NCBI GenBank assembly: GCA_964016885.1
Contig: OZ024740.1
Location: forward strand, 175,150,001 to 175,214,000
Source: Eledone cirrhosa
Lineage: Eukaryota
Reading direction: 5' to 3'
DNA length: 64,000 nt
Made by a program: the position numbers and the translations under genes. Of the stretch, positions 5,263-56,409 are shown piece after piece. The notes below the pieces were generated by a model. That model had not been told where the DNA came from. It was given only the letters and a program-made list of their open reading frames with translations, and did no database searches. Position 1 is the first letter of the stretch; each line of letters starts with the position of its first letter.

Positions 5263-5784
5263 CATTTAAACATGTTTTTTCCGTCTTTTTCTAGCATACG
5301 TTTTTATCGTTCATTCCACTAAATATGCAAGCATTTATAATTCGTTTCAATTAGAAGCATCCCAATGGTTAGGTAGCCATTTTCCTCCCCACCACGTGAT
5401 GACGAATGTGCCGCCCCCTTCTGCTGAGAAGCTCCTCTTTGTGTGGGAGTTGGTGATACATATGCATAAGCCTACATGTTGAGAGGGCTGTACGATTTCG
5501 TGATATGTACATGCATATTCCCCCCTTCGAATCCACCCAAACGATATAGTAAATGCTATAATCACTACATCAGGGATCAATAGGAGGACCATGCAAACTA
5601 CAATGGAGCTAGCGACTAGAGGTGGTCCGAGCTGGTGCTGGTGGAAACTACAGGTATCTGGGCGACTTCAAAATTCATTTATACGCCCTGACTATCTCCA
5701 AGTGTTCGTGCAGTCCTTCTACCCTTCAGGCCTATGAAAATAGCAAGACACCCATGCACCTCCTGATCATGATCATCAAACGCA

Positions 5785-8700
5785 GCGCTTAAGGTTTGCC
5801 ATTATCAATGTCGGGAAAATAAAAGATAAGTGTGGTGGGATTGTGGAGATGCTCGAGAGGAGACAAGTAGATATATGTTGGGTGGTGATCACATGCAAAG
5901 AACAACGGTTCAAATTCTTCTGGATGGGTAGCAATAATGGAGTGAGTGGAGTAGGAATGCTCCTTGCTGATATATGCGTAGTCCAAGTAACTGATGGTGA
6001 GTGATAGAATAATTAAACTTTGACTAGCCTTGGGCAGCTCTACAGATAGCATGTTATCAGCATACACTCCACAAGCAAGACTTGTCGACGAACAAAAAGA
6101 ACATTTCTATGAGGCCCTTCTACGGACTACATCAATGACAGATGACAGTGATCTTATGATCGCAGCTGGTGACTTCAATGGACATGTTGAACAACATCAT
6201 GACAGATTCCCTGGCATACTCGAAGCTACAGTTATGGCGCAAAACAGAAGAAAGAGTCTAGAGTTCTTGTGATGCTTTCGACTTAATGATCTGTAACACA
6301 AACTTGAAACCAGCCAACCACCTGATTATTAACCAATCAGCGGGGTATACAAGACAAATAGTTTCATCCTCACCAGGAAAGGGGACAGGTAAATGGTTGT
6401 AAATGCCAAAGCCTTTCCTACGGAAAAATGTACCTCCCAACATAGATTAGTTTTCAGTGACCTTAGGATGTGCTAAACAGACTAAGAGACAAAAGTCAGT
6501 CTGGAGAAGGAAAACCTAGAGCTAAGAGAACAAATATATATAAATCCTACTTGACACCTTTGACAGTAGGGAAGATATGTAGACATATAACATAGAGGAA
6601 AACTAGGGCTTCCTACGGGACAACCTGCTGGAAGCTACAAACCAGGCCTGCGGCTGGAGTAAGGTTCCAATGAGACGGAGAGTGATGTGGTGGTGGAATG
6701 ATAAGGTAGATAGAGCTATAAAAACAAAAATACAAGCCTGCAAAGACTGGAGGAAAGGGGGGGGGGAGACAGGGAGAAATATCAAATAGCTAGAAGAAAG
6801 GCCAGGCAGAGGTAGAAAAGAAGAAATTAGCTCATGTTCTGTGTCGCGAAGATCAGAGGTGTGAAGTGTTTCCTATTGTGAGAGTGTGTTAGACACAACC
6901 GTGATGCAGTTGCGGAAAAGTTTGAAATGATAGTAGAGCGATTGCTCTGTTGCATGCCGAAAAGAAGGAAGCATGGAAGACTTACTATGAGAGACTACTG
7001 AACAAAGAGAATAAATAGGACAGCAAGGGCCTACCTCATCCAGACCCAACTGAATATCCAGCTATAAATGTTGACAGCAGAGTGATAGATAAAACATGAA
7101 AATAGAGAAGGCAGCTGGACCATCTAGTATAGTTGCTAAGATGTTAATAGTATCTGCCATGGTAGGGTATGCAATAGTCAAACACTTAGTTAATGAAGTA
7201 ATATAGGAAGAGGTCATACCCAATGACTGGTGCAGCAGTATCATTGTAAATTGTTACAAGGGCAAAGAAGATGCACTAGAGAGGAGTAACTACAGAGGTA
7301 TCAAGTTGATGGACCAGGTCATAAAAATTGCTGAAAGGGTTATATCACAATTAATTAAGGACAGAATCAAGTTAGATGAGATGCAGTTTGGATTTATGTC
7401 AGGCAGAAGTACTAATGGTGCCCTCATAGTAAGAGAACTGAAAGAGAAGAGTACTTAGCTAAGAGTAAGCCACTGCATCTGGCTTTTGTAAATATGGAGA
7501 AGGCTTTGACAGAGTCCCATGATCTGTAAGCTGGTGGGGGTTTACAAAGCTAGGTGTAGATGGCTTGTGAAGGCTGTGCAAGCCATGTATAAAGGAGCAA
7601 CCAGCAAGGTGAGGATTAGAAGCTAGTACTTATGAATTTCAATTGCAGGTGGGGGTCCACCAAGGGACCATTCCTCAGTCCACTCCTGTTTATCATTGTT
7701 CTTCAGGCCATCTCTGAAGAGTTTAAAACTGGCACTCCATGGATGCTCTGATATGCTGATGACCTAGTCCTTATAGTTGAATTCATAGGAGAGATAGAAA
7801 CAAAATTTCAAACATGGAAGAAGAACCTAGAGGTGAAAGGCCTAAAGATAAACTTAACAAAGACGAAAGTACTCATAAGTAGGAAAGAGGACAGGAGGGT
7901 GATACCATCAGGAAGTGGCCTTGTTCTATAAGTCAGAAAAAGGTGGACAAATTCTATATGGTACACACAGTGCAATCTATGAACACACAAGAGATGTAGT
8001 GGGATTGTAGACAAATTAACAGAAAAGATAAACTTTGTATGTGGCAGAAGCATAGAAGAAGTAAACACCGAGAACTCACATGAAGTAAATTCCTTCAGCT
8101 CCCAGGGAGGCTCCTTAGAAGTTGTTGGCAGCTTTTGTTACTTAGTCAATCAAATTAGCCGTGGGGATAATGCACTGAAAGTGTGATAGCTAGGATCAGA
8201 ACAAATTAGAAGTTTAGAGGACTTATACCTCTGCTGACAACAAAGGGTTTCTTGCTCATAGTGAAGGGTAGTAGATTGTATGATGCCGGCATGCGAACTG
8301 TAATTCTACACCGCAGTGAAACATGGACCTTAACCACAGAAAGCCTGTGAAGGCTGAAGAGAAATGAAGTGAGTATGCTGTGATGGTTGTGTAATGTTAG
8401 TGTGAATGAGTGATGTAGCATAAGTGAACTGAAAGGAAAACTTGGCATAAGAGGAATTGGATGTAATGTACAAGAGAGAATACTGCACTGGTATGGACAT
8501 GTGATGCATATGGAGGATAGCAACTGCATAAAGAAATGCAGAGAAATCCTAGTGACTGGAACCCAAGGAAAAGGCAGACCCAGGAAAACATGGGATGAGG
8601 CAGTGAAGAGTGACCTTAAGAAACTAAGACTCACAAATGAGATAACAATGAATAAAGAGTGCTGGTGCTATGCTGTGTTGAGGAAGACCCATCCAGAAGC

Positions 8701-23094: not shown

Positions 23095-26000
23095 ATCATC
23101 ATCATCATCATCATCTTTGTTTAACGTCTATTTTCTATGCTAGCATGGGTTGGACGGGAGTTGTCCCACTTGAGGCAAGGCTGGTCGGTGACCATGTCTC
23201 GCTCATATAGGACTATCTGGCAGGTTTTCTACGGCTAGATGCCCTTCCTAAGACCAACCACATTTACAGTGTGGAACTGGGAACTTTTTACCATGTTACC
23301 TACACGACCACATTACAGCGTGGACTGTGTGTGTTTTTTTTGTCGTGACACCTACACGATCTCGATCTCATTTTCTCGTGCTGTTGGTGGGAGTGGGAGG
23401 ATAGGGTAGGGGTAGTGGATTGGGGTGTATATTTGGTTAAGAGGTGTCTACGGACTGTAGGTTTCACTTTGTACATAGGCAAGGCGGGTCTTCTGTATTA
23501 CTGCGTAGCGCCAAAGATCTCGGTCCAGAGACATTATCTTAGAGAGATGTAAGTGTGTGAAGTCGGAATTTATCAGATCATCCCAGGTTTTTCTGGGTCT
23601 ACCTACTCCGTAACTACCATCAATTTTGATCGCCCTGCACTTTTTTATGCAGCTGTCGTCTTTCATGCGCATCACATGACCATACCAACGTAGTCTTCTC
23701 TCAAGTAAACAGCATCTGATCCCTCTTATTCCTAATTTCTCACTTAGTTCATTTATGCTTTGCGGTTCACGTATATTACTGTTACACATCCAATGGAGCA
23801 TGCATGCTTCGTTCCTTTCCAGTCTATGCAGGTCCTCTGCACGTAATGCCCATGTCTCACTGCCATGTAACATTGCTGTTCGTATACAGGCATCATACAA
23901 TCTGCCTTTCATTTTTAGAGAGAAACCTTTTGTGGCCAACAGCAGTATAAGCTCTCTGAACTTTTTCCATCCCGTTCTGACTCTGGCTACTGTACTTTCA
24001 GAACACCCTCCACCACTGCTGATTTCGTCACCCAGGTAACGGAAAGTGTCTACTATTTCTATAGAACCATCTGGGCAATAGGAGCTAGTATCTTTTGGAC
24101 ACTTGCTACTTATTGCACCTGAGCATTGGCCACATATAAAGTCTACGTTCTTAGATAGTTTACCTGTGATACCACTACATCTTTTATGTACCCATACTTT
24201 GCATTTGGGACATAAAATGGAATTTCTGCCTACTCCTTTCCTACACACTGAGCATGGCCATTTCCCTGAGGGCACCTGTGCCTTATTTTCCTTCCTACAA
24301 ACTAGAACTTTAGTCTTAGACAAGTTAACTTTAAGGCCTTTTGATTCTAGGCCATGCTTCCATGTTTCAAATTTCTTCTCTAGTTCAGCCATTGATTCAG
24401 CTATGAGCGTTAGATCATCTGCGTATAGGAGTTCCCATGGGCAACCGGTCTTGAACTCCTCTGTTATAGCCTGAAGGGCAATAATAAATAAGAGGGGGCT
24501 AAGGACAGAGCCTTGATGAATGCCAACTTTTACACTAAATTCTTCACAATATTCATTGTTAATTCTAACCTTACTGACTGTTTCATTATACATAGCTTGT
24601 ATAGCTCTCACAAGCCATTCATCTACACCTAGTTTTCTAAGAGCCCACCAGATAATGGAGCGGGGGACTCTGTCAAAAGCTTTCTCCAGGTCTACAAAAG
24701 CTAAGTAGAGGGGTTTACTTTTAGCTAAGTACTTCTCTTGTAGTTGTCGTACAAGGAAAAGAGCGTCTGTGGTTCTTTTACTTTACACAAACCCAAACTG
24801 CATTTCATCTAAATCAATTCGCTCTCCGATTAGTTGCGCTATAACTCTTTCTGTGACCTTCATGACCTGGTCAACTAACTTAATGCCTCTATAGTTTCCC
24901 CTATCTAGAGCATCCCCTTTACCCTTGTAGCAGTTAATGATGATGCTGCTATGCCAGTCTTTCGGTATGACCCCATTCTGTATTACTTGGTTAACTATAT
25001 GGGTGACCATAGTGTGTCCCACCATACCAGATGCCTTCAACATATCAGCAACTATCTCCGAAGGTCCAGCTGCTTTGCCTGTCTTCATATCTTTGATTGC
25101 CTTACTTATTATACTGCCTTTAACTTGCACCGCTGGTCCTTCTATTGGATCGATTTGGGGCAGACTATCTTTTTCCCATTTATTCTCCTCATTTAATAGT
25201 CTCTCCTAGTGAAACTTCCAGGCTATCTTCTTATCAGTATCAGTGAGTGCAAGTACACCATTATCATTACGGACACACTTCTCCCCGACAATATCATGGT
25301 TTTCTTTGACACATTGTCTAGCATTCTTGAACACCTCACGTTGAAGAACATGCTTGAATTTTCTATCCTCTGCTACCCTTTTTGCAAGGTACACTTGTCT
25401 CCTAGCTTCTCTCCTGGCCACTTGATAGTGCTCTCTACTTCCCCCATCCTGCCATACTTTCCAAGCCTGCTTTTTGGCCTTGATTATCTCTTCTACCTTA
25501 CTGTTCCACCACCAAGTTACTCTCCTCCTGCCAATAGGTCTGCTCCAGCCACAGATTTCATCCGTTGCTTTCAGTAGGTTCACTTTCAAGAATTGGCACT
25601 GTTCATCTATATTGCACATCTCTAATTGCTCTTCCTTATTGTCAAAGGCATCAAGTAATAAGCTTTTAAATTTGTCACTGGCTATGGGGTCCTTCAACTT
25701 CCATATTCTTCTCCTCAAGGTAGGCCTCCTCTGTCGTCGAGTACGTCTATTCCTGACTATGAGGTCACTAACTACTAGGCTATGTTGGGAGGTGCATTCT
25801 TCACGGGGGAGGGATTTAGTGTTTACAACAGACATTTTGTCCCGTCTTCTAGTAAGGATATAATCTATCTGGCTGGCGTATTCCCCTGATCTATAGGTGA
25901 TCAAGTGGTTTTCACGTTTTTTGAAGTTTGTGTTAGGCTATTTGCGTCACAGAATTCCAGGATTCTGAAGCCCTCCTCATTTCTATTTCCAACCCCATAG

Positions 26001-27352
26001 CCTCCATGGATTCCATCATAGCCATCACTATGTTGTCCAACGTGACCGTTTAGATCGCCAGCAATAATTAAGTAGTCACTGTCAGTTATTTGGGAGGTAG
26101 TGTGCATTAGCATCTCATAGAACCTGTCCTTTATAACATCAGGTAGACCAGATTGCGGTGCATAAGCAGATATTATTGTCACATTAGTTCTATTTAGAAC
26201 TAGTCTTAATTCAATTATTCTGTCATTCACTCTATTTACGTCAATTACCTTATCTACCCATTTTTCAGTTAACATAATTCCTACACCACCCTGTCCGTTG
26301 TCATTTCCCACCCAGAAAAGTTTATAGCATCGTTTTTTACCCACGATGAATCTGGCAGACCCCCCCCCCCTCTCCACCTAGTCTCTTGAATACAACAAAC
26401 ATCAACTTCTTTACGTTCAAGCATCTTTACACCTCATTTGAGCGACCTTTCAATGTGCCTACATTCATGGTACCAACTCTGAAGTTGGGAGGGTGGGATG
26501 GATGGGTTGGAGGGGCAGGGAGGAGTGTGGGTGACGGGATTTTGTTGGTCATCTGTGTCTGAAATAAAGAGGGGTCCTTGTATTCTCGTCTTGCAGCGGG
26601 AGGTGAATTTATCTTTATCTGTGACATTGTCATTGAGTGCTTAGACTTTTCAAATTTCCGCAGTCAACCCATCAAACAGGTCTAAACTTAAGGAGTAGTA
26701 ACCGGGGTGGTAGCTTTGCTATACTGATTTGTTAGAGAACTTACTAAAGTCGCTGAGTTATGATTGAACCATATAGCAATGGTGGTGTGTGGGGGTTGGG
26801 GGGCGGGAAATGGGTGACTTTAGGAGAAGTTTAGTTTTTAGGAAAGGTCCAACAGATTGGGACATATTAAACAACATAGTAAAAACATGTAAATAGTAAT
26901 TTAAAATCAGAGAGGAAAACGGAGAATTTGAATTTGAGAGTGGTAAAAATAAGATTTTAAAAACACTGCTTAATTGAGGAGACTACGGAAATAAAGAAAA
27001 GACAGGTTTTGCTTATATTCTCAAAATCGACAGATCGCCGTTAAGATAGATTAGATAGATAAATTCTGTCATTGGAAGCCAGCAAGATTTATTTTATACT
27101 TGCGATCAGGCAGACGGGGGGGGGGGGGGGGGGGGGGGCAAAGTGATATAAATAGGAGTTTAAAACACAGACGACTTTAGGAGAAGTTTAGTTTTTAGGA
27201 AAGGTCCAACAGATTGGGACATATTAAAAACATGTAAATAGTAATTTAAAATAAGAGAGGAAAATGGAGAATTTGAATTTTAGAGTGATATAAATAAAGA
27301 AAAGACAGGTTTTGCTTACATTCTCAAAATTGACAGATCGCTCTTAAGATAG
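23095..27352 (-). mobile_element. Full-length PHD-RTE (family A'), ORF broken by several frameshifts/stops
   Basis: ORF pieces 26427-26633, 25901-26377, 25206-25904, 24783-25130 and 23448-24611 align colinearly with the intact 1081-aa ORF. (CAT)n tail at 23095; duplicated 5' unit at 26816-27352; (TA)n-rich on both sides. Confidence 0.95.
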
Positions 27353-27450
27353 ATATATATATATACAATATAATATATATATATAACATAATATATATAC
27401 AATATAATATATATATGATGTATATATAGCATAATATATATACAATATAA

Positions 27451-30400
27451 CAACTCGCTATTTCTGGGATGGCTGTTCCCTTCGGTATAAAGTAACGTTC
27501 AAATTTTTCTCGATTCTTCTCTCCATTCGAACCCATTCATTCAATCACTTCTATGTCCTAATTTCACACTATATCATATTTTCACCATCCTATATCATAT
27601 CTTTTCTCTAAAAATCATATTTCCCCTATCACCGCATTTTCTCTACCGTATTTTCTTAAACAAAACAAATCTTGTATTTTCGTTTATTGTTAAATTATGC
27701 CCAAAATTTTTTTCTCGATTCTTCTCTCCATTCGAACCCATTCATTCAATCACTTCTATGTCCTAAATTCACACTATATCATATTTTCACCATTATATAT
27801 CATATCTTTTCTCTAGAAATCATATTTTCCCTATCACCGCATTTTCTCTATCGTAATTTCTTAAACAAAACAAATCTTGTATTTTCGTTTATTGTTAAAT
27901 TATGCCCAATTTTTTCTCGATTCTTCTCTCCATTCGAACCCATTCATTCAATCACTTCTATGTCCTAAATTCACACTATATCATATTTTCACCATTATAT
28001 ATCATATCTTTTCTCTAAAAATCATATTTTCCCTATCACCGCATTTTCTCTATCGTAATTTCTTAAACAAAACAAATCTTGTATTTTCGTTTATTGTTAA
28101 ATTATGCCCAATTTTTTCTCGATTCTTCTCTCCATTCGAACCCATTCATTCAATCACTTCTATGTCCTAAATTCACACTATATCATATTTTCACCATTAT
28201 ATATCATATCTTTTCTCTAAAAATCAAATTTTCCCTATCACCGCATTTTCTCTATCGTAATTTCTTAAACAAAACAAATCTTGTATTTTCGTTTATTGTT
28301 AAATTATGCCCAATTTTTTCTCGATTCTTCTCTCCATTCGAACCCATTCATTCAATCACTTCTATGTCCTAAATTCACACTATATCATATTTTCACCATT
28401 ATATATCATATCTTTTCTCTAAAAATCATATTTTCCCTATCACCGCATTTTCTCTATCGTAATTTCTTAAACAAAACAAATCTTGTATTTTCGTTTATTG
28501 TTAAATTATGCCCAATTTTTTCTCGATTCTTCTCTCCATTCGAACCCATTCATTCAATCACTTCTATGTCCTAAATTCACACTATATCATATTTTCACCA
28601 TTATATATCATATCTTTTCTCTAAAAATCATATTTTCCCTATCACCGCATTTTCTCTATCGTAATTTCTTAAACAAAACAAATCTTGTATTTTCGTTTAT
28701 TGTTAAATTATGCCCAATTTTTTCTCGATTCTTCTCTCCATTCGGACCCATTCATTCAATCACTTCTATGTCCTAAATTCACACTATATCATATTTTCAC
28801 CATTATATATCATATCTTTTCTCTAAAAATCATATTTTCCCTATCACCGCATTTTCTCTATCGTAATTTCTTAAACAAAACAAATCTTGTATTTTCGTTT
28901 ATTGTTAAATTATGCCCAATTTTTTCTCGATTCTTCTCTCCATTCGAACCCATTCATTCAATCACTTCTATGTCCTAAATTCACACTATATCATATTTTC
29001 ACCATTATATATCATATCTTTTCTCTAAAAATCATATTTTCCCTATCACCGCATTTTCTCTATCGTAATTTCTTAAACAAAACAAATCTTGTATTTTCGT
29101 TTATTGTTAAATCATGCCCAAAATACGGCGATCTTATCTTAAACCTTACATTCTCGCTATCACTATTATATATTCCTTTAAATATAATTTGTTAAACTTG
29201 CTAAGTTTTACGCAAATCTTCGAGTACCTATTTAAACTTTTAACCTCTGCTCCATCCCATATTCTACCCCCTACCCATTCACCATGCTGGTTCCTGCCCC
29301 CCCCCCCCTCCCTCTCTATACATATAAGATAAAACCCTACCAAAATTAATCAAAATCGCCAACTCGCTATTTCTGGGATGGCTGTTCCCTTCGGTATAAA
29401 GTAACGTTCAAAATTTTTCTCGATTCTTCTCTCCATTCGAACCCATTCATTCAATCACTTCTATATCCTAATTTCACACTATATCATATTTTCACCATCC
29501 TATATCATATCTTTTCTCTAAAAATCATATTTCCCCTATCACCGCATTTTCTCTACCGTATTTTCTTAAACAAAACAAATCTTGTATTTTCGTTTATTGT
29601 TAAATTATGCCCAAAATTTTTTTCTCGATTCTTCTCTCCATTCGAACCCATTCATTCAATCACTTCTATGTCCTAAATTCACACTATATCATATTTTCAC
29701 CATTATATATCATATCTTTTCTCTAAAAATCATATTTTCCCTATCACCGCATTTTCTCTATCGTAATTTCTTAAACAAAACAAATCTTGTATTTTCGTTT
29801 ATTGTTAAATTATGCCCAATTTTTTCTCGATTCTTCTCTCCATTCGAACCCATTCATTCAATCACTTCTATGTCCTAAATTCACACTATATCATATTTTC
29901 ACCATTATATATCATATCTTTTCTCTAAAAATCATATTTTCCCTATCACCGCATTTTCTCTATCGTAATTTCTTAAACAAAACAAATCTTGTATTTTCGT
30001 TTATTGTTAAATTATGCCCAATTTTTTCTCGATTCTTCTCTCCATTCGAACCCATTCATTCAATCACTTCTATGTCCTAAATTCACACTATATCATATTT
30101 TCACCATTATATATCATATCTTTTCTCTAAAAATCATATTTTCCCTATCACCGCATTTTCTCTATCGTAATTTCTTAAACAAAACAAATCTTGTATTTTC
30201 GTTTATTGTTAAATCATGCCCAAAATACGGCGATCTTATCTTAAACCTTACATTCTCGCTATCACTATTATATATTCCTTTAAATATAATTTGTTAAACT
30301 TGCTAAGTTTTACGCAAATCTTCGAGTACCTATTTAAACTTTTAACCTCTGCTCCATCCCATATTCTACCCCCTACCCATTCATCATGCTGGTTCCTGCC

Positions 30401-31570
30401 CCCCCCCCCCCCCCCTCCCTCTCTATACATATAAGATAAAACCCTACCAAAATTAATCAAAATCGCCAACTCGCTATTTCTGGGATGGCTGTTCCCTTCG
30501 GTATAAAGTAACGTTCAAAATTTTTCTCGATTCTTCTCTCCATTCGAACCCATTCATTCAATTACTTCTATGTCCTAATTTCACACTATATCATATTTTC
30601 ACCATCCTATATCATATCTTTTCTCTAAAAATCATATTTCCCCTATCACCGCATTTTCTCTACCGTATTTTCTTAAACAAAACAAATCTTGTATTTTCGT
30701 TTATTGTTAAATTATGCCCAAAATTTTTTTCTCGATTCTTCTCTCCATTCGAACCCATTCATTCAATCACTTCTATGTCCTAAATTCACACTATATCATA
30801 TTTTCACCATTATATATCATATCTTTTCTCTAAAAATCATATTTTCCCTATCACCGCATTTTCTCTATCGTAATTTCTTAAACAAAACAAATCTTGTATT
30901 TTCGTTTATTGTTAAATTATGCCCAATTTTTTCTCGATTCTTCTCTCCATTCGAACCCATTCATTCAATCACTTCTATGTCCTAAATTCACACTATATCA
31001 TATTTTCACCATTATATATCATATCTTTTCTCTAAAAATCATATTTTCCCTATCACCCCATTTTCTCTATCGTAATTTCTTAAACAAAACAAATCTTGTA
31101 TTTTCGTTTATTGTTAAATTATGCCCAATTTTTTCTCGATTCTTCTCTCCATTCGAACCCATTCATTCAATCACTTCTATGTCCTAAATTCACACTATAT
31201 CATATTTTCACCATTATATATCATATCTTTTCTCTAAAAATCATATTTTCCCTATCACCGCATTTTCTCTATCGTAATTTCTTAAACAAAACAAATCTTG
31301 TATTTTCGTTTATTGTTAAATTATGCCCAATTTTTTCTCGATTCTTCTCTCCATTCGAACCCATTCATTCAATCACTTCTATGTCCTAAATTCACACTAT
31401 ATCATATTTTCACCATTATATATCATATCTTTTCTCTAAAAATCATATTTTCCCTATCACCGCATCTTCTCTATCGTAATTTCTTAAACAAAACAAATCT
31501 TGTATTTTCGTTTATTGTTAAATCATGCCCAAAATACGGCGATCTTATCTTAAACCTTACATTCTCGCTA
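27451..31570 (+). repeat. Two-level tandem array forming the 5' region of the intact RTE: 17 x ~202-bp monomers in three higher-order units (8, 4 and 5 monomers; starts 27451, 29360, 30467)
   Basis: Identical ORF starts recur at 202-bp spacing (205 after each first monomer). Each unit begins caactcgctatttctggg, and its first monomer carries the same diagnostic variants. Confidence 0.95.
29297..29360 (+). promoter_or_regulatory. Putative Pol II core promoter at the end of higher-order unit 1 (poly-C + TATAAGA); repeated at ~30399-30467
   Basis: TATAAGA at 29323 and 30430, each 37 nt upstream of the sequence that forms the element's 5' end at 27451. Confidence 0.4.
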
Positions 31571-31673
31571 ACAACCCATCATCCCTCCCTCCCGCCCCCA
31601 CGCACCACCATTATTACGTGGACCAATCATAAGTCAGAGGCCCATACTATCGCTTAACTGGTTGCTTTTCTAT

Positions 31674-34600
31674 ATGATGGATGGACTACGGAATTCTGGA
31701 GAGTTGAAGAGAGAAAAATGTGGACGCTCAGCGACAATGCCAAAGATAAAGCCAAATTCACCTCGTGGACGAGAATGCAAGCACTCCTCCTTGTTTCGGC
31801 CCAGGATGGCTAACATAACCCCATCCCCCCCCGCGTCCCACCGCTCCCACCCTCCAAACGCAATCCAAAACTTCAGAGTTGGTACCATGAATGTAGGCAC
31901 CTTAAAGGGTCGCTCTAACGAGGTTGTAGAAATGCTTGAACGTAAGGAGGTCGATGTTTGTTGTATTCAAGAGACCAGGTGGAGGGGATGGTCGGCTAGA
32001 TTCATCGTGGGTAAAGAGCGATGCTATAAGCTTTTCTGGGTGGGAAATGACAATGGGTTGGGTGGGGTAGGAATCATGGTAGCAGAAAAGTGGGCAGATA
32101 AGATAATAGACGTAAATAGAGTGAACGACAGAATAATTAAAATAAGACTTGTCCTCAATAAAACTACGGTGACAGTAATATCTGCGTACGCACCCCAATC
32201 CGGACAGCCCCGCGCTATAAAAGACAGATTCTACGAGACACTGATGCTCGCTACCTCCCAAATAACCGACAGTGACTATATAGTTATTGCAGGCGACCTA
32301 AATGGTCACGTTGGACAACATTGTGATGGCTATGACGGAATCCATGGAGGCTATGGGTTCGGTACTAGAAATGAGGAAGGCTCCAGAATCCTGGAATTCT
32401 GCGACGCAAATAACTTAACTATCTGTAACACTAACTTCAAAAAACGAGACAATCACTTGATCACCTATAGATCGGGGGAACACACAAGCCAGGTAGATTA
32501 TATCCTTACCAGAAGACGTGACAGAGTGTCTGTTGTTAACACTAAATCCCACCCGCATGAAGAATTCACCTCCCAACATAGACTGATAATTAGCGACCTC
32601 AAAGTCAGGACGAGACGTACTAGACAGCGAAAGAGGACTATCCTCAGGAGAAAAATATGGAAGCTAAAGGACCCCATAGCCAGAAATAAATTTCAAAGCA
32701 AATTACTTGACGCTTTCGACAGTAAGGAAGAGCAATTAGAGTCATATAATATAGAGGAACAGTGGGAATTCCTGAGAGCAAACCTGCTGACGGCGGCAGA
32801 CGAAGTCTGTGGCTGGAGCAGGCCTGTAGGTAGGAGGAGAGTAACATGGTGGTGGAACAGTAAGGTGGAGGAGTCAATTAAGGCCAAAAAGCAGGCTTGG
32901 AAAGTATGGCGGGATGGGGGAAGTAGAGAAGACTATCAAGTGGCCAGGAGGGAAGCTAGGAGACAAGTGTACTTCGCAAGAAGGGAAGCAGAGGAAAGAA
33001 AGTTCAAGCATGTTCTACAACGTGAGGACCAAAAACGTGAGGTGTTCAGGATTGCCAGGCAATGTGTCAAGGAAAACCGTGATATTGTCGGGGAGAAGTG
33101 TGTACTTAACGATGATGGCATACTTGCCATCACCGACGCTGATAAGAAGGTAGCTTGGAAGTGTCACTACGAAAGGCTTCTAAATGAGGAGAACAAATGG
33201 GAGAAAGACAGTCTCCCCCAGATCGATCCAATAGAGGGACCAGCAGTGTTAGTTGAAGGTAGTATAATAAGTAAGGCAATCAAAGATATGAAGACGGGTA
33301 AGGCGGCTGGGCCTTCGGAAATAGTTGCTGAGATGCTGAAGGCATCTGGTTCGGTGGGATACACCATGGTCACCCGGATAGTTAACCAAGTCGTACAGAA
33401 TGGGGTTGTTCCGAAGGAATGGCGTAGCAGCATCATCGTTAACTGCTATAAGGGAAAAGGAGATGCCCTAGATAGGAGTAACTATAGAGGCATTAAATTA
33501 ATCGACCAGGTCATGAAGGTCACGGAAAAAGTAATAGCGCAACTAATCAGAGAGAGAATTGATCTAGATGAAATGCAGTTCGGGTTTGTGTCAGGCAAAA
33601 GTACCACAGACGCTCTTTTCATTGTACGACAACTACAGGAGAAGTACCTAGCTAAAAGTAAACCCCTATACTTAGCTTTCGTCGACTTGGAGAAAGCCTT
33701 CGACAGAGTCCCCCGTTCCATTATCTGGTGGTCTCTTAGAAAACTAGGTGTTGACGAATGGCTTGTGAGAGCTATACAAGCCATGTATAAAGAAACAGTC
33801 AGTAAGGTTAGAATTAACAACGAATATAGTGAAGAGTTTAGCGTAAAAGTTGGTGTCCATCAGGGCTCTGTACTTAGCCCCCTACTATTTATTATTGCCC
33901 TTCAGGCTATAACAGAGGAGTTCAAGACCGGCTGCCCATGGGAACTCCTATACGCAGATGATCTAACGCTCATAGCTGAATCAATGACCGAACTAGAGAA
34001 GAAATTCCAAACGTGGAAGCACGGCCTAGAATCAAAAGGCCTTAAAATTAACCTGGCTAAGACTAAAGTTCTAGTTTGTAGGAAAGAAAATAAGGCGGCG
34101 GTCCCATCGGGGAAATGGCCATGCTCAGTGTGTAGGAAAGGCGTAGGTAGAAACTCCATTTTATGTCCCAAATGCAAAGTATGGGTGCATAAAAGATGTA
34201 GTGGGATCACAGGTAAGCTAACTAAGAACATAGATTTTACATGTGGCCGGTGCTCTGGTGCAATAAGTAGCAGCAAGTGCCCACAAAATACTAGCTCCTT
34301 CAACTGCGCAGAGGGTTCTATAGAAATAGTGGACAGCTTCCGTTATCTGGGTGACAAAATCAGCAGTGGGGGAGGGTGCTCTGAAAGTACAGTAGCTAGA
34401 GTCAGAACTGGATGGAAAAAGTTCAGAGAGCTTATACCACTATTAGCCGCTAGAGGGTTCTCCCTAAAAATGAAAGGCAGGTTATACGATGCCTGCATAC
34501 GAACAGCAATGCTGCATGGCAGTGAGACCTGGGCATTGTGTGCAGAGGATATACGCAGACTAGAGAGGAACGAAGCTTGCATGCTCCGCTGGATGTGCAA

Positions 34601-34907
34601 TAGTAATATACGTGAACGGCAAAGTATAAACGAACTAAGGAAAAAATTAGAAATAAGAGGGATCAGATGTTGTTTACTCGAGAGAAGGCTACGTTGGTAC
34701 GGTCACGTGATGCGCATGAAAGACGACAGCTGTATAACAAAGTGCAGGGCAATAAAGATAGACGGTAGCCACGGAGTAGGCAGACCCAGAAAAACATGGG
34801 ACGAGCTGATAAATTCCGACCTCACACGCTTACACCTCTCCAAGACAATGTCACTGGACCGAGACCTTTGGCGGTACTCAGTAATAGAGAAGACCCGCCT
34901 TACCTAA
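31674..34907 (+). CDS. RTE-clade ORF: AP endonuclease + reverse transcriptase with inserted PHD finger
   Basis: APE motifs GTMNVGTL, CIQETR, SAYAPQ, GDLNGHVG, QVDYIL, SQHRL. RT motifs NYRGIKL, QFGF, FVDLEKAFDRVP, HQGSVLSPLLF, YADD (33951), FRYLG. PHD at 34122-34253; RTE C-terminus RLRWYGHVMR..GRPRKTW. First ATG 31674; the ATG at 31737 is also conserved in the sister copy. Confidence 0.97.
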   Translation: MMDGLRNSGELKREKCGRSATMPKIKPNSPRGRECKHSSLFRPRMANITPSPPASHRSHPPNAIQNFRVGTMNVGTLKGRSNEVVEMLERKEVDVCCIQETRWRGWSARFIVGKERCYKLFWVGNDNGLGGVGIMVAEKWADKIIDVNRVNDRIIKIRLVLNKTTVTVISAYAPQSGQPRAIKDRFYETLMLATSQITDSDYIVIAGDLNGHVGQHCDGYDGIHGGYGFGTRNEEGSRILEFCDANNLTICNTNFKKRDNHLITYRSGEHTSQVDYILTRRRDRVSVVNTKSHPHEEFTSQHRLIISDLKVRTRRTRQRKRTILRRKIWKLKDPIARNKFQSKLLDAFDSKEEQLESYNIEEQWEFLRANLLTAADEVCGWSRPVGRRRVTWWWNSKVEESIKAKKQAWKVWRDGGSREDYQVARREARRQVYFARREAEERKFKHVLQREDQKREVFRIARQCVKENRDIVGEKCVLNDDGILAITDADKKVAWKCHYERLLNEENKWEKDSLPQIDPIEGPAVLVEGSIISKAIKDMKTGKAAGPSEIVAEMLKASGSVGYTMVTRIVNQVVQNGVVPKEWRSSIIVNCYKGKGDALDRSNYRGIKLIDQVMKVTEKVIAQLIRERIDLDEMQFGFVSGKSTTDALFIVRQLQEKYLAKSKPLYLAFVDLEKAFDRVPRSIIWWSLRKLGVDEWLVRAIQAMYKETVSKVRINNEYSEEFSVKVGVHQGSVLSPLLFIIALQAITEEFKTGCPWELLYADDLTLIAESMTELEKKFQTWKHGLESKGLKINLAKTKVLVCRKENKAAVPSGKWPCSVCRKGVGRNSILCPKCKVWVHKRCSGITGKLTKNIDFTCGRCSGAISSSKCPQNTSSFNCAEGSIEIVDSFRYLGDKISSGGGCSESTVARVRTGWKKFRELIPLLAARGFSLKMKGRLYDACIRTAMLHGSETWALCAEDIRRLERNEACMLRWMCNSNIRERQSINELRKKLEIRGIRCCLLERRLRWYGHVMRMKDDSCITKCRAIKIDGSHGVGRPRKTWDELINSDLTRLHLSKTMSLDRDLWRYSVIEKTRLT

Positions 34908-35404
34908 ATACAAAGTAAAAACCTACTACAGTCAGTAGGTATCTCTATCAAAACACCCCCCGGTCCCACCACCTCCACCCCATCCACACCGCCCCTTTCA
35001 ATGTAAAGTTATGTTGGTGCCACAACATCCAGGCCGAAACAAATGAGATCGTGTAGGTGTCACGACAAAAAAACACACAGTCCACGCTGTAAATGTGGCC
35101 GTGTAGGCAACACGGTAAAAACCTCCCAGCCCCACACTGTAAATGTGGTTGGTGTTAGGAAGGGCATCCAGCTGTAGAAAACCCGCCAGACAGTCCACGC
35201 TGTAATGTGGCCGTGTAGGCAAAACGGTAAAAACCTCCCAGCCCCACACTGTAAATGTGGTTGGTGTTAGGAAGGGCATCCAACTGTAGAAAACCCGCCA
35301 GACAGTCCTATGCGAGCAAGACAACCACTCTTGCCTCAAGTGGGAAAACCCCCGTCCAAACCCATGCAAGCGTGGAACACGGACGCTAAACCTGATGATG
35401 ATGA

Positions 35405-35458
35405 TCATCATCATCATCATTGTTTAACGTCCATCTTCCACGCTAGCATGGGTTTGGA
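35405..35458 (-). mobile_element. Very short RTE 3' end, tail-to-tail with the intact element
   Basis: (CAT)n tgtttaacgtccatcttccacgctagcatgggtttgga differs at several positions from the family-A end next to it. Confidence 0.8.
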
Positions 35459-51322: not shown

Positions 51323-51415
51323 ATATATATATATATATATTATATATATATATCATATATATATATATATTATATATATATATCATATATATATATTATA
51401 TATATATATTATATA

Positions 51416-51758
51416 TGGAGGCACATGGCTTAGTGGTTAGAGCATTGGCCTTGCAATCGAAAGGTTGTGAGTTCAATTCTCAGACCGGGTGATGTGTTGT
51501 TTCCTTGAGCAAGACACTTTATTTCACATTGCTCCAGTTTACTCAGCTGTAGAAATGAGATGATAGGGACTGAGGTCTTTATCATTCCACTGTAAAGTGG
51601 TCGTGCAGGTGCCATGGCAAAAAAGCACCCAGCACTCACTGTAAATGAGGTTGGTGTTAGGAAGGGCATCCAGCTGTAGAAATCGAGCCAGCATCAGTTC
51701 CCGTCCTACCCTTGCAAGCAGGGAAAAAGTGGACGTAAAATGAAATGATGAATGATGA
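51416..51758 (+). mobile_element. SINE family 1 (first of a tandem pair)
   Basis: Full length. Confidence 0.9.
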
Positions 51759-52101
51759 TGGAGGCACATGGCTTAGTGGTTAGAGCATTGGCCTTGCAAT
51801 CGAAAGGGTGTGAGTTCAATTCTCAGACCGGGTGATGTGTTGTTTCCTTGAGCAAGACACTTTATTTCAGATTGCTCCAGTTTACTCAGCTGTAGAAATG
51901 AGATGATAGGGACTGGGGTCCATATAATTCCACTGCAAAGTGGTCGTGCAGGTGTCACGGCAAAAAAGTACCCAGCACTCACTTTAAATGAGGTTGGTGT
52001 TAGGAAGGGCATCCAGCTGTAGAAATCAAGCCAGAATCAGTTCCCGTCCCACCCTTGCAAGCAGGGACAAAGCGGACGTAAAAATGAAATGATGATGATG
52101 A
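51759..52101 (+). mobile_element. SINE family 1 (second of a tandem pair)
   Basis: Starts immediately after the GAT tail of the first copy. Confidence 0.9.
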
Positions 52102-52174
52102 TATATATATTATATATATTATATATATATATTATATATATATATTATATATATATATATATATAATATATATA

Positions 52175-56025: not shown

Positions 56026-56400
56026 GGTGGATTGGCAGTATCGGTAGAGGCTCGGACGCCATGCTTTGACGCAAAGAGTTATGGCCCTTTCCATTCTGAG
56101 TTCAAATCCCGCCAAGGTTGACTTTGCCTTTCATCCTTACGGGTCGATAAAATATAGTACCAGTAATGCACTGGATAATTGCTGGCCTTGTGCCAAAAGT
56201 AGAAACAATTATATATATACATATGCAGTATCGGTAGAGAGTCGGACGCCATGCTTTCCAGCATAGTTACGTCCCTTTACGATCTGAGTTCAAATCTCGC
56301 CGAGGTTGACTTTGCCTTTCATCCTTACGGGGTCGATAAAATAAAGTACCAGTAATACACTGGGTAATTGCTGGCCTTGTGCCTAAAGTAGAAACAATTA
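56026..56400 (+). mobile_element. Two tandem SINE family 2 copies (56026-56211, 56225-56400)
   Basis: Both have the B-box, central domain and tagaaacaatta end. Confidence 0.88.
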
Positions 56401-56409
56401 TATATATTA

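Follow-up and report, generated by a model that had tools for sequence, protein, structure and literature searches.

The window, that is, the whole 64-kb stretch of DNA that was analysed, contains an intact LINE on the plus strand with a tandemly repeated 5' region. The repeats (27451..31570) run into a C-rich leader (31571..31673, plus strand) and a single open frame (31572..34907, plus strand), which spans 1111 codons from stop to stop and has its first in-frame ATG at 31674. No microsatellite was found in the interval between the array and the ORF, confirming the original prediction that the array directly precedes an intact LINE. The frame encodes an AP endonuclease, a reverse transcriptase (RT), and a PHD-like finger right behind the RT core. 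This finger corresponds to ORF residues 851-894 (window region 34122-34253) and is common among the homologues. In the portions of the literature available to us, no description of a PHD-like finger in RTE elements was found beyond a remark on a zinc finger. The 3' UTR (34908..35405, plus strand) contains a 112-bp tandem pair (35077-35308) and a (TGA)n tail.

We call this LINE RTE-like from its domain layout, the comparison proteins carrying no RTE names. Its one ORF encodes both AP endonuclease and RT, an ORF1 is absent, and the 3' end is microsatellite-like, with (TGA)n present at all nine 3' ends shown. RTE elements have been described as ending 3' in a microsatellite-like repeat and as having target site duplications of 7-15 bp (PMC6007223). 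No target site duplication was seen by eye at the focal element, which is flanked by (TA)n and by an inverted 3'-end fragment of a related copy (35404..35458, minus strand, 88% identical). The fragment lies tail to tail with the focal element, has (TA)n beyond it, and forms a near-palindrome of the (TGA)n tail and 55 bp of inverted 3' sequence (35404-35458). A fixed inverted 3' extension was considered as a family trait and dropped, being present at one of the nine 3' ends.

The 5' region is built from three higher-order units. The unit head, CAACTCGCTA, occurs three times in the window, starting at 27451, 29360, and 30467 with spacings of 1909 and 1107, and the third unit is 1104 bp long and terminates with CTCGCTA (31564-31570). 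Within the units, 17 monomers are grouped 8/4/5 with a period of 202, the spacing from first to second monomer being 205 in each unit, and TRF returns 8.0, 4.0, and 5.0 copies with 98% matches. The unit starts, monomer counts, period, and TATAAGA position given in the original prediction are exact to the base. The region is better written as body-tail-body-tail-body-leader, where a body consists of the head, the monomers, and a 38-bp post segment, and each body runs into either a tail of 200 bp or the leader. The body of unit 1 (27451..29159, plus strand) has a 56-bp head, eight monomers (27500-29121), and a post segment ending in CTCGCTA. It is followed by a tail (29160..29359, plus strand), a putative upstream promoter with a run of 12 C at 29297 and TATAAGA at 29323. 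The body of unit 2 (29360..30261, plus strand) has the head, four monomers (29414-30223), and the post segment, and its tail (30262..30466, plus strand) carries 17 C at 30399 and TATAAGA at 30430, differing from the first tail by one substitution and five additional C. Both TATAAGA motifs lie 37 nt upstream of the next unit head. The body of unit 3 (30467..31570, plus strand) has the head, five monomers (30521-31532), and the post segment, with the leader in place of a tail.

The non-monomer parts are almost invariant between the focal units (0/56-57 and 1/238 differences). Among the monomers, seven class columns are constant in all three units, six marking the first monomer and one marking the last. 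The remaining seven variant columns are singletons, each found in one of the 17 monomers, which is consistent with the array having arrived whole. The monomers are 28% G+C with 4% G and five CpG. The 5' end of the focal element sits at the head, 49-56 bases ahead of the first monomer. The focal 5' region contains 45 ATGs, 18 of them from the last head onward, a number that is awkward for translation, and no open frame of at least 150 codons is present within the array. Folding gave no signal for head, monomer, tail, leader, or sister units (z-scores of -0.9 to +0.7). Some RTE members carry a 5' self-cleaving ribozyme; an Rfam scan returned seven weak hits in the region, none to a ribozyme family, and no ribozyme in six related loci either. 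By eye, no terminal hallmarks of a Helitron- or MITE-like origin of the units were seen. Also by eye, and speculatively, a 5' UTR intron could lie around the monomers: a weak GT donor is present in the head (30508-30513), a branch-point-like CTAAC arises only at the body-leader junction (31567-31571), and the common monomer has no AG, while TCAG is retained in both leaders (31630-31638 in the focal one). The GT of this putative donor is missing from one of the two heads of the sister element.

The sister element lies on the minus strand, head to head with the focal element and 97 bases away across a (TA)n-like microsatellite (27355..27450) that forms the 5' flank of both. Its leader, broken ORF, 3' UTR, and (TGA)n tail (23095..26815, minus strand) show four frameshifts in the endonuclease part and a few stops, and its ORF is 87% identical to the focal ORF over 3014 aligned bases. 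The sister 5' region reads body (182 bp)-tail (121 bp)-body (236 bp)-leader. The outer body (27173..27354, minus strand) starts with its head against the (TA)n flank. The tail (27052..27172, minus strand) carries a run of 23 C (27138-27116) and TATAAAA from 27098, which lies 47 nt ahead of the inner head, or 37-47 nt allowing for a short ATCT repeat. The inner body (26816..27051, minus strand) joins the leader at the point homologous to focal position 31570. Outer and inner body differ by 9/182 mismatches and two deletions.

The two leaders are homologous (z 14; 0/500 shuffles as good), and the end of the sister body aligns weakly with the last focal monomer and post segment (7/500 shuffles). 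Neither the tails (30/500 shuffles) nor the focal head and the sister body or head (266/500 shuffles) align beyond chance. Units of one element are 95-100% alike, whereas those of different elements can hardly be aligned, which suggests repeated renewal by duplication; the 5' layout is kept while the unit sequence turns over. No monomer array is present inside the sister bodies. The 202-bp hierarchy is therefore not the conserved feature, and the inner tier is lineage-specific, a secondary expansion inside the body of one sub-lineage without a shown function. An exact 10-mer, ACGGCGATCT, is common to both unit types, a match equalled in 1/200 shuffles. In the focal post segment (29126-29146) it is followed by TATCTTAA, and in the sister head (27046-27030, minus strand) the two words occur in reversed order. 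Perhaps they mark a binding site common to both elements, or are left over from an earlier head.

The feature that keeps its position in both elements is a poly-C run followed by a TATA-like motif. Five runs of at least nine C are present in the window, and three of them have a TATA hexamer within 40 nt, exactly the three tails. A TATA hexamer 12-19 nt past the poly-C is found in 128/2000 and 43/2000 shuffles, in a range picked after seeing the data. The heads follow the poly-C by 51 nt (focal unit 2) and 64 nt (sister), and the positions 45-75 nt behind a poly-C amount by chance to 31/1107 and 31/357, respectively. A TATA-like hexamer alone 30-47 nt upstream is a weak signal, found for ~10% of positions, and the poly-C offset is rarer. 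A perfect TATAWAWR is absent from both the focal and the sister tail, and the focal TATAAGA deviates from TATAWAW. In textbook promoters, the TATA box lies roughly 30 nt upstream of the start. The spacing from TATA to the 5' end is 37 nt in the focal element and 37-47 nt in the sister, which requires the assumption that 6-16 bases were lost from the terminus.

The (TA)n flank itself contains perfect TATAWAWR matches, at -30 from the first base of the focal element and at -31/-29/-27 from that of the sister. Such matches are dense in the (TA)n flanks (five and six per 60 nt), and a match at -30 is therefore expected as a by-product of target choice. Seven of eight truncated copies abut (TA)n on the 5' side, and seven of nine 3' ends run directly into TA-rich sequence, indicating that (TA)n is the target and not part of the element. 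The TATA match in the flank, though a by-product of target choice, could nevertheless serve as a promoter.

The array could be a separate satellite or non-autonomous element abutting the LINE by chance, or be inflated by the assembly. TAACAAC, a seven-letter word, recurs at each of the outer borders, which would fit a target duplication. On the other hand, the sister, with a different sequence, repeats this layout and joins its leader at the matching point, the first and last monomer classes recur in all three units, and individual monomers carry private variants. No other copy of the array sequence lies elsewhere within the 64-kb window. Read depth was taken from four of 18 listed runs (X1, X4, X16, and X17) over 31326-35070, which covers one monomer, the junction, and the ORF. 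In X1, the monomer bins have depths of 22.0k and 16.9k and the leader bins 21.4k and 48.4k. Toward the 3' end the depth reaches 1.4-1.8 million, a slope typical of 5' truncation. The values are 434 and 305 against 161 and 304 in X16, and 296 and 208 against 204 and 421 in X17; monomer and leader depth are of the same order in X4, X16, and X17. On average, the monomer bins are within ~3-fold of the leader bins in all four runs, depth being a rough guide here: it is not copy number, RAD depth tracks cut sites, and equal depth is no proof of linkage. Run X1 may come from the assembly's own sample. The monomer is thus not far commoner than the 5' end of the LINE, which makes a large free satellite unlikely.

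The joints are also seen in the reads. Contigs of X1 include a joint between two monomers (depth 165), and a contig of X4, which carries a second organism label, spans the body-leader junction (31556-31688) with one difference, its array side being only 15 letters long. At position 31479, a letter unique to first monomers accounts for 367/392 reads in X16, 240/247 in X17, a depth of 5539/7421 in X1, and all of X4. The inner-type letter, which fills 14/17 places here, is in the minority genome-wide at this one site, among the rows listed. With a chance neighbour or an assembly artefact being improbable, the array is very probably the LINE family's own 5' region, as originally proposed and as the sister layout and the similar monomer and leader depths bear out. 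A family-level tandem 5' layout in an RTE-like LINE is real.

Based on these observations, the array may be a 5' promoter region in which the poly-C and TATA of each tail form an external upstream promoter for the next body, a reading to which we give an even chance. The original prediction that the end of a unit acts as promoter for the next agrees with the position of the 5' ends, which lie at a head, the sequence that follows poly-C and TATA, in 2/2 elements that retain a 5' region; the transcription start and the promoter activity are what we infer from this position. The architecture would be (body-tail)n-body-leader-ORF, with each tail starting RNA a few bases before the next body. A new copy would then begin at a head, without the tail that drove its transcription, and the inner tails would travel with it as working promoters for its offspring. 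Units might be renewed by duplication, through template switching at 5' completion or unequal exchange, and the (TA)n target may stand in for the missing outer TATA box. The loss of a unit per cycle is unnecessary if (TA)n or an internal promoter can drive the outer head, and a strict rule of one unit lost each cycle is doubtful. It is unlikely that the lineage swapped an internal for an external TATA promoter and kept it through duplicated spare tail-head units together with (TA)n insertion rebuilding a TATA at -30.

Two other readings start, like the tail-promoter reading, from the premise that the array belongs to the element as its 5' region. In one, the array would be a 5' UTR transcribed from an internal promoter within the head or the body, as in mouse L1, every head firing and the tail acting as enhancer or spacer. 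Internal promoters are described as typical of most non-LTR elements (PMC2377424, PMC1636488), this reading predicts identical 5' ends at heads, and the 10-mer common to both unit types lies inside the transcribed part, though placed differently. However, the focal head and the sister body are dissimilar, whereas poly-C and TATA hold their position upstream in both, and the monomers are CpG-poor and G-poor, unlike the L1 promoters described in PMC5381506; we regard an internal promoter as rather unlikely. Alternatively, the tail-head boundary might be an RNA 3'-processing site, the RT jumping onto cleaved short body-tail RNAs and thereby adding 5' units. The TATA coincides in part with a hexamer resembling a poly(A) signal, placed identically in both elements (GATAAA in the focal element, AATAAA in the sister; 32 and 32-42 nt before the head), and template jumps have been proposed for 5' extension of TART (PMC1636488). 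Such hexamers are, however, common in AT-rich DNA, no A-run is found at any junction, and the heads have neither an Rfam ribozyme nor a folding signal. Processing would also leave the promoter that drives the element unexplained, and we consider it highly improbable.

Under the tail-promoter reading, the closest parallels are known tandem promoters. Mouse L1Md elements (A, Tf, Gf) resemble the focal element in having ~200-bp tandem monomers upstream of the ORF, and their arrays are described as having positional monomer subtypes, a variable number, and a tether to the ORF (PMC6454616, PMC5381506). Their promoter is thought to be maintained against 5' loss by duplication, through unequal crossing-over or second-strand priming (PMC6454616, PMC5381506). 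Mouse L1 belongs to the L1 clade, has an ORF1, is CpG-rich, and has 5' ends inside monomers near AP-1 or YY1 sites. In contrast, the focal element has its 5' end at the head outside the monomers, is G-poor, has two tiers, and ends its units with poly-C and TATA; CpG-island monomers with a 5' end inside the monomer were not found. In Drosophila HeT-A and TART, an upstream repeat provides the promoter for the downstream sequence (PMC1636488, PMC2377424). In HeT-A, a complete element lying upstream in the telomeric array lends its 3' UTR as promoter, and the RNA is terminally redundant, whereas the focal element is interstitial and neither its array nor its tail matches its own 3' UTR; the HeT-A analogy made in the original prediction thus fails on the origin of the tail. 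In Penelope, a partial tandem is reported to make the transcription unit, a tendency to form tandems being the only renewal route known (PMC2377424). Penelope belongs to another retroelement class, its repeat consists of the 3' end of the copy before it, and its mapped promoter is internal and TATA-less.

We infer that the focal array is a further version of this tandem-promoter solution. How non-LTR elements avoid losing their promoter when they pass through RNA is a long-standing question, and the way in which mouse L1 monomer arrays are renewed is described as not yet clear (PMC6454616). A further, independent example whose units are sharply bounded, whose 5' ends are fixed, and which comes in two diverged subfamilies would allow template switching and unequal exchange to be tested as alternatives. 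Should the TATA box come from the (TA)n target, choosing a target and renewing the promoter would amount to a single trait. Repeat libraries may misfile such 5' arrays as separate satellites. Within the open-access literature searched, an RTE-type LINE with tandem TATA-bearing 5' units was not found. The parts seen of two octopus RTE papers do not mention a tandem 5' region (PMC9115989, PMC13282606). One of them describes RTE-2_OV, with a 1109-residue frame and a zinc finger, UTRs of ~600 nt, and a microsatellite that directly adjoins the end of the ORF (PMC9115989).

Protein homologues were found among 196/5684 candidates, the best 53% identical and nearly all unnamed. These relatives (P0001-P0120; loci L001 and L003-L005) have a single endonuclease-RT frame of ~1050-1100 residues, many with a PHD finger. 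None of 128 viral contigs was related, and 3/102 candidates in a metagenome scan and 12/94 in a genome scan were, all distantly. A tandem array or poly-C was found upstream in 0/4 distant loci with 408-2076 upstream bases. Short assemblies break at repeats, so that missing arrays in these hits are weak evidence. Loci L004-L009 are animal-type LINEs in contigs filed as bacterial metagenome-assembled genomes. Some of them lie terminally on long contigs, and eukaryotic contamination is the likely source. In the window, an old and heavily broken related LINE (5750-8689) reaches the endonuclease start, and the 1 kb upstream of it has no focal-like array.

A GGAAGG..GCATCC motif is present in the 5' UTR of three of four distant loci, and the focal family has it in the 3' UTR, which hints at a replacement of the 5' UTR. 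The 5' UTRs of L001 (~1820-1845), L003 (~525-560), and L005 (~190-222) contain a GGTTGG..AGGAAGGGCATCC motif that the focal family has in the duplicated 112-bp unit of its 3' UTR (window 35148-35290); the core of this motif has 19 occurrences in the window, some of them within SINE-like repeats. Two further tandem pairs are present, at 51415-52102 (343 bp) and 56035-56407 (189 bp). The 343-bp pair has a tRNA-like head and a motif in common with the LINE 3' UTR, and therefore looks like a SINE dimer.
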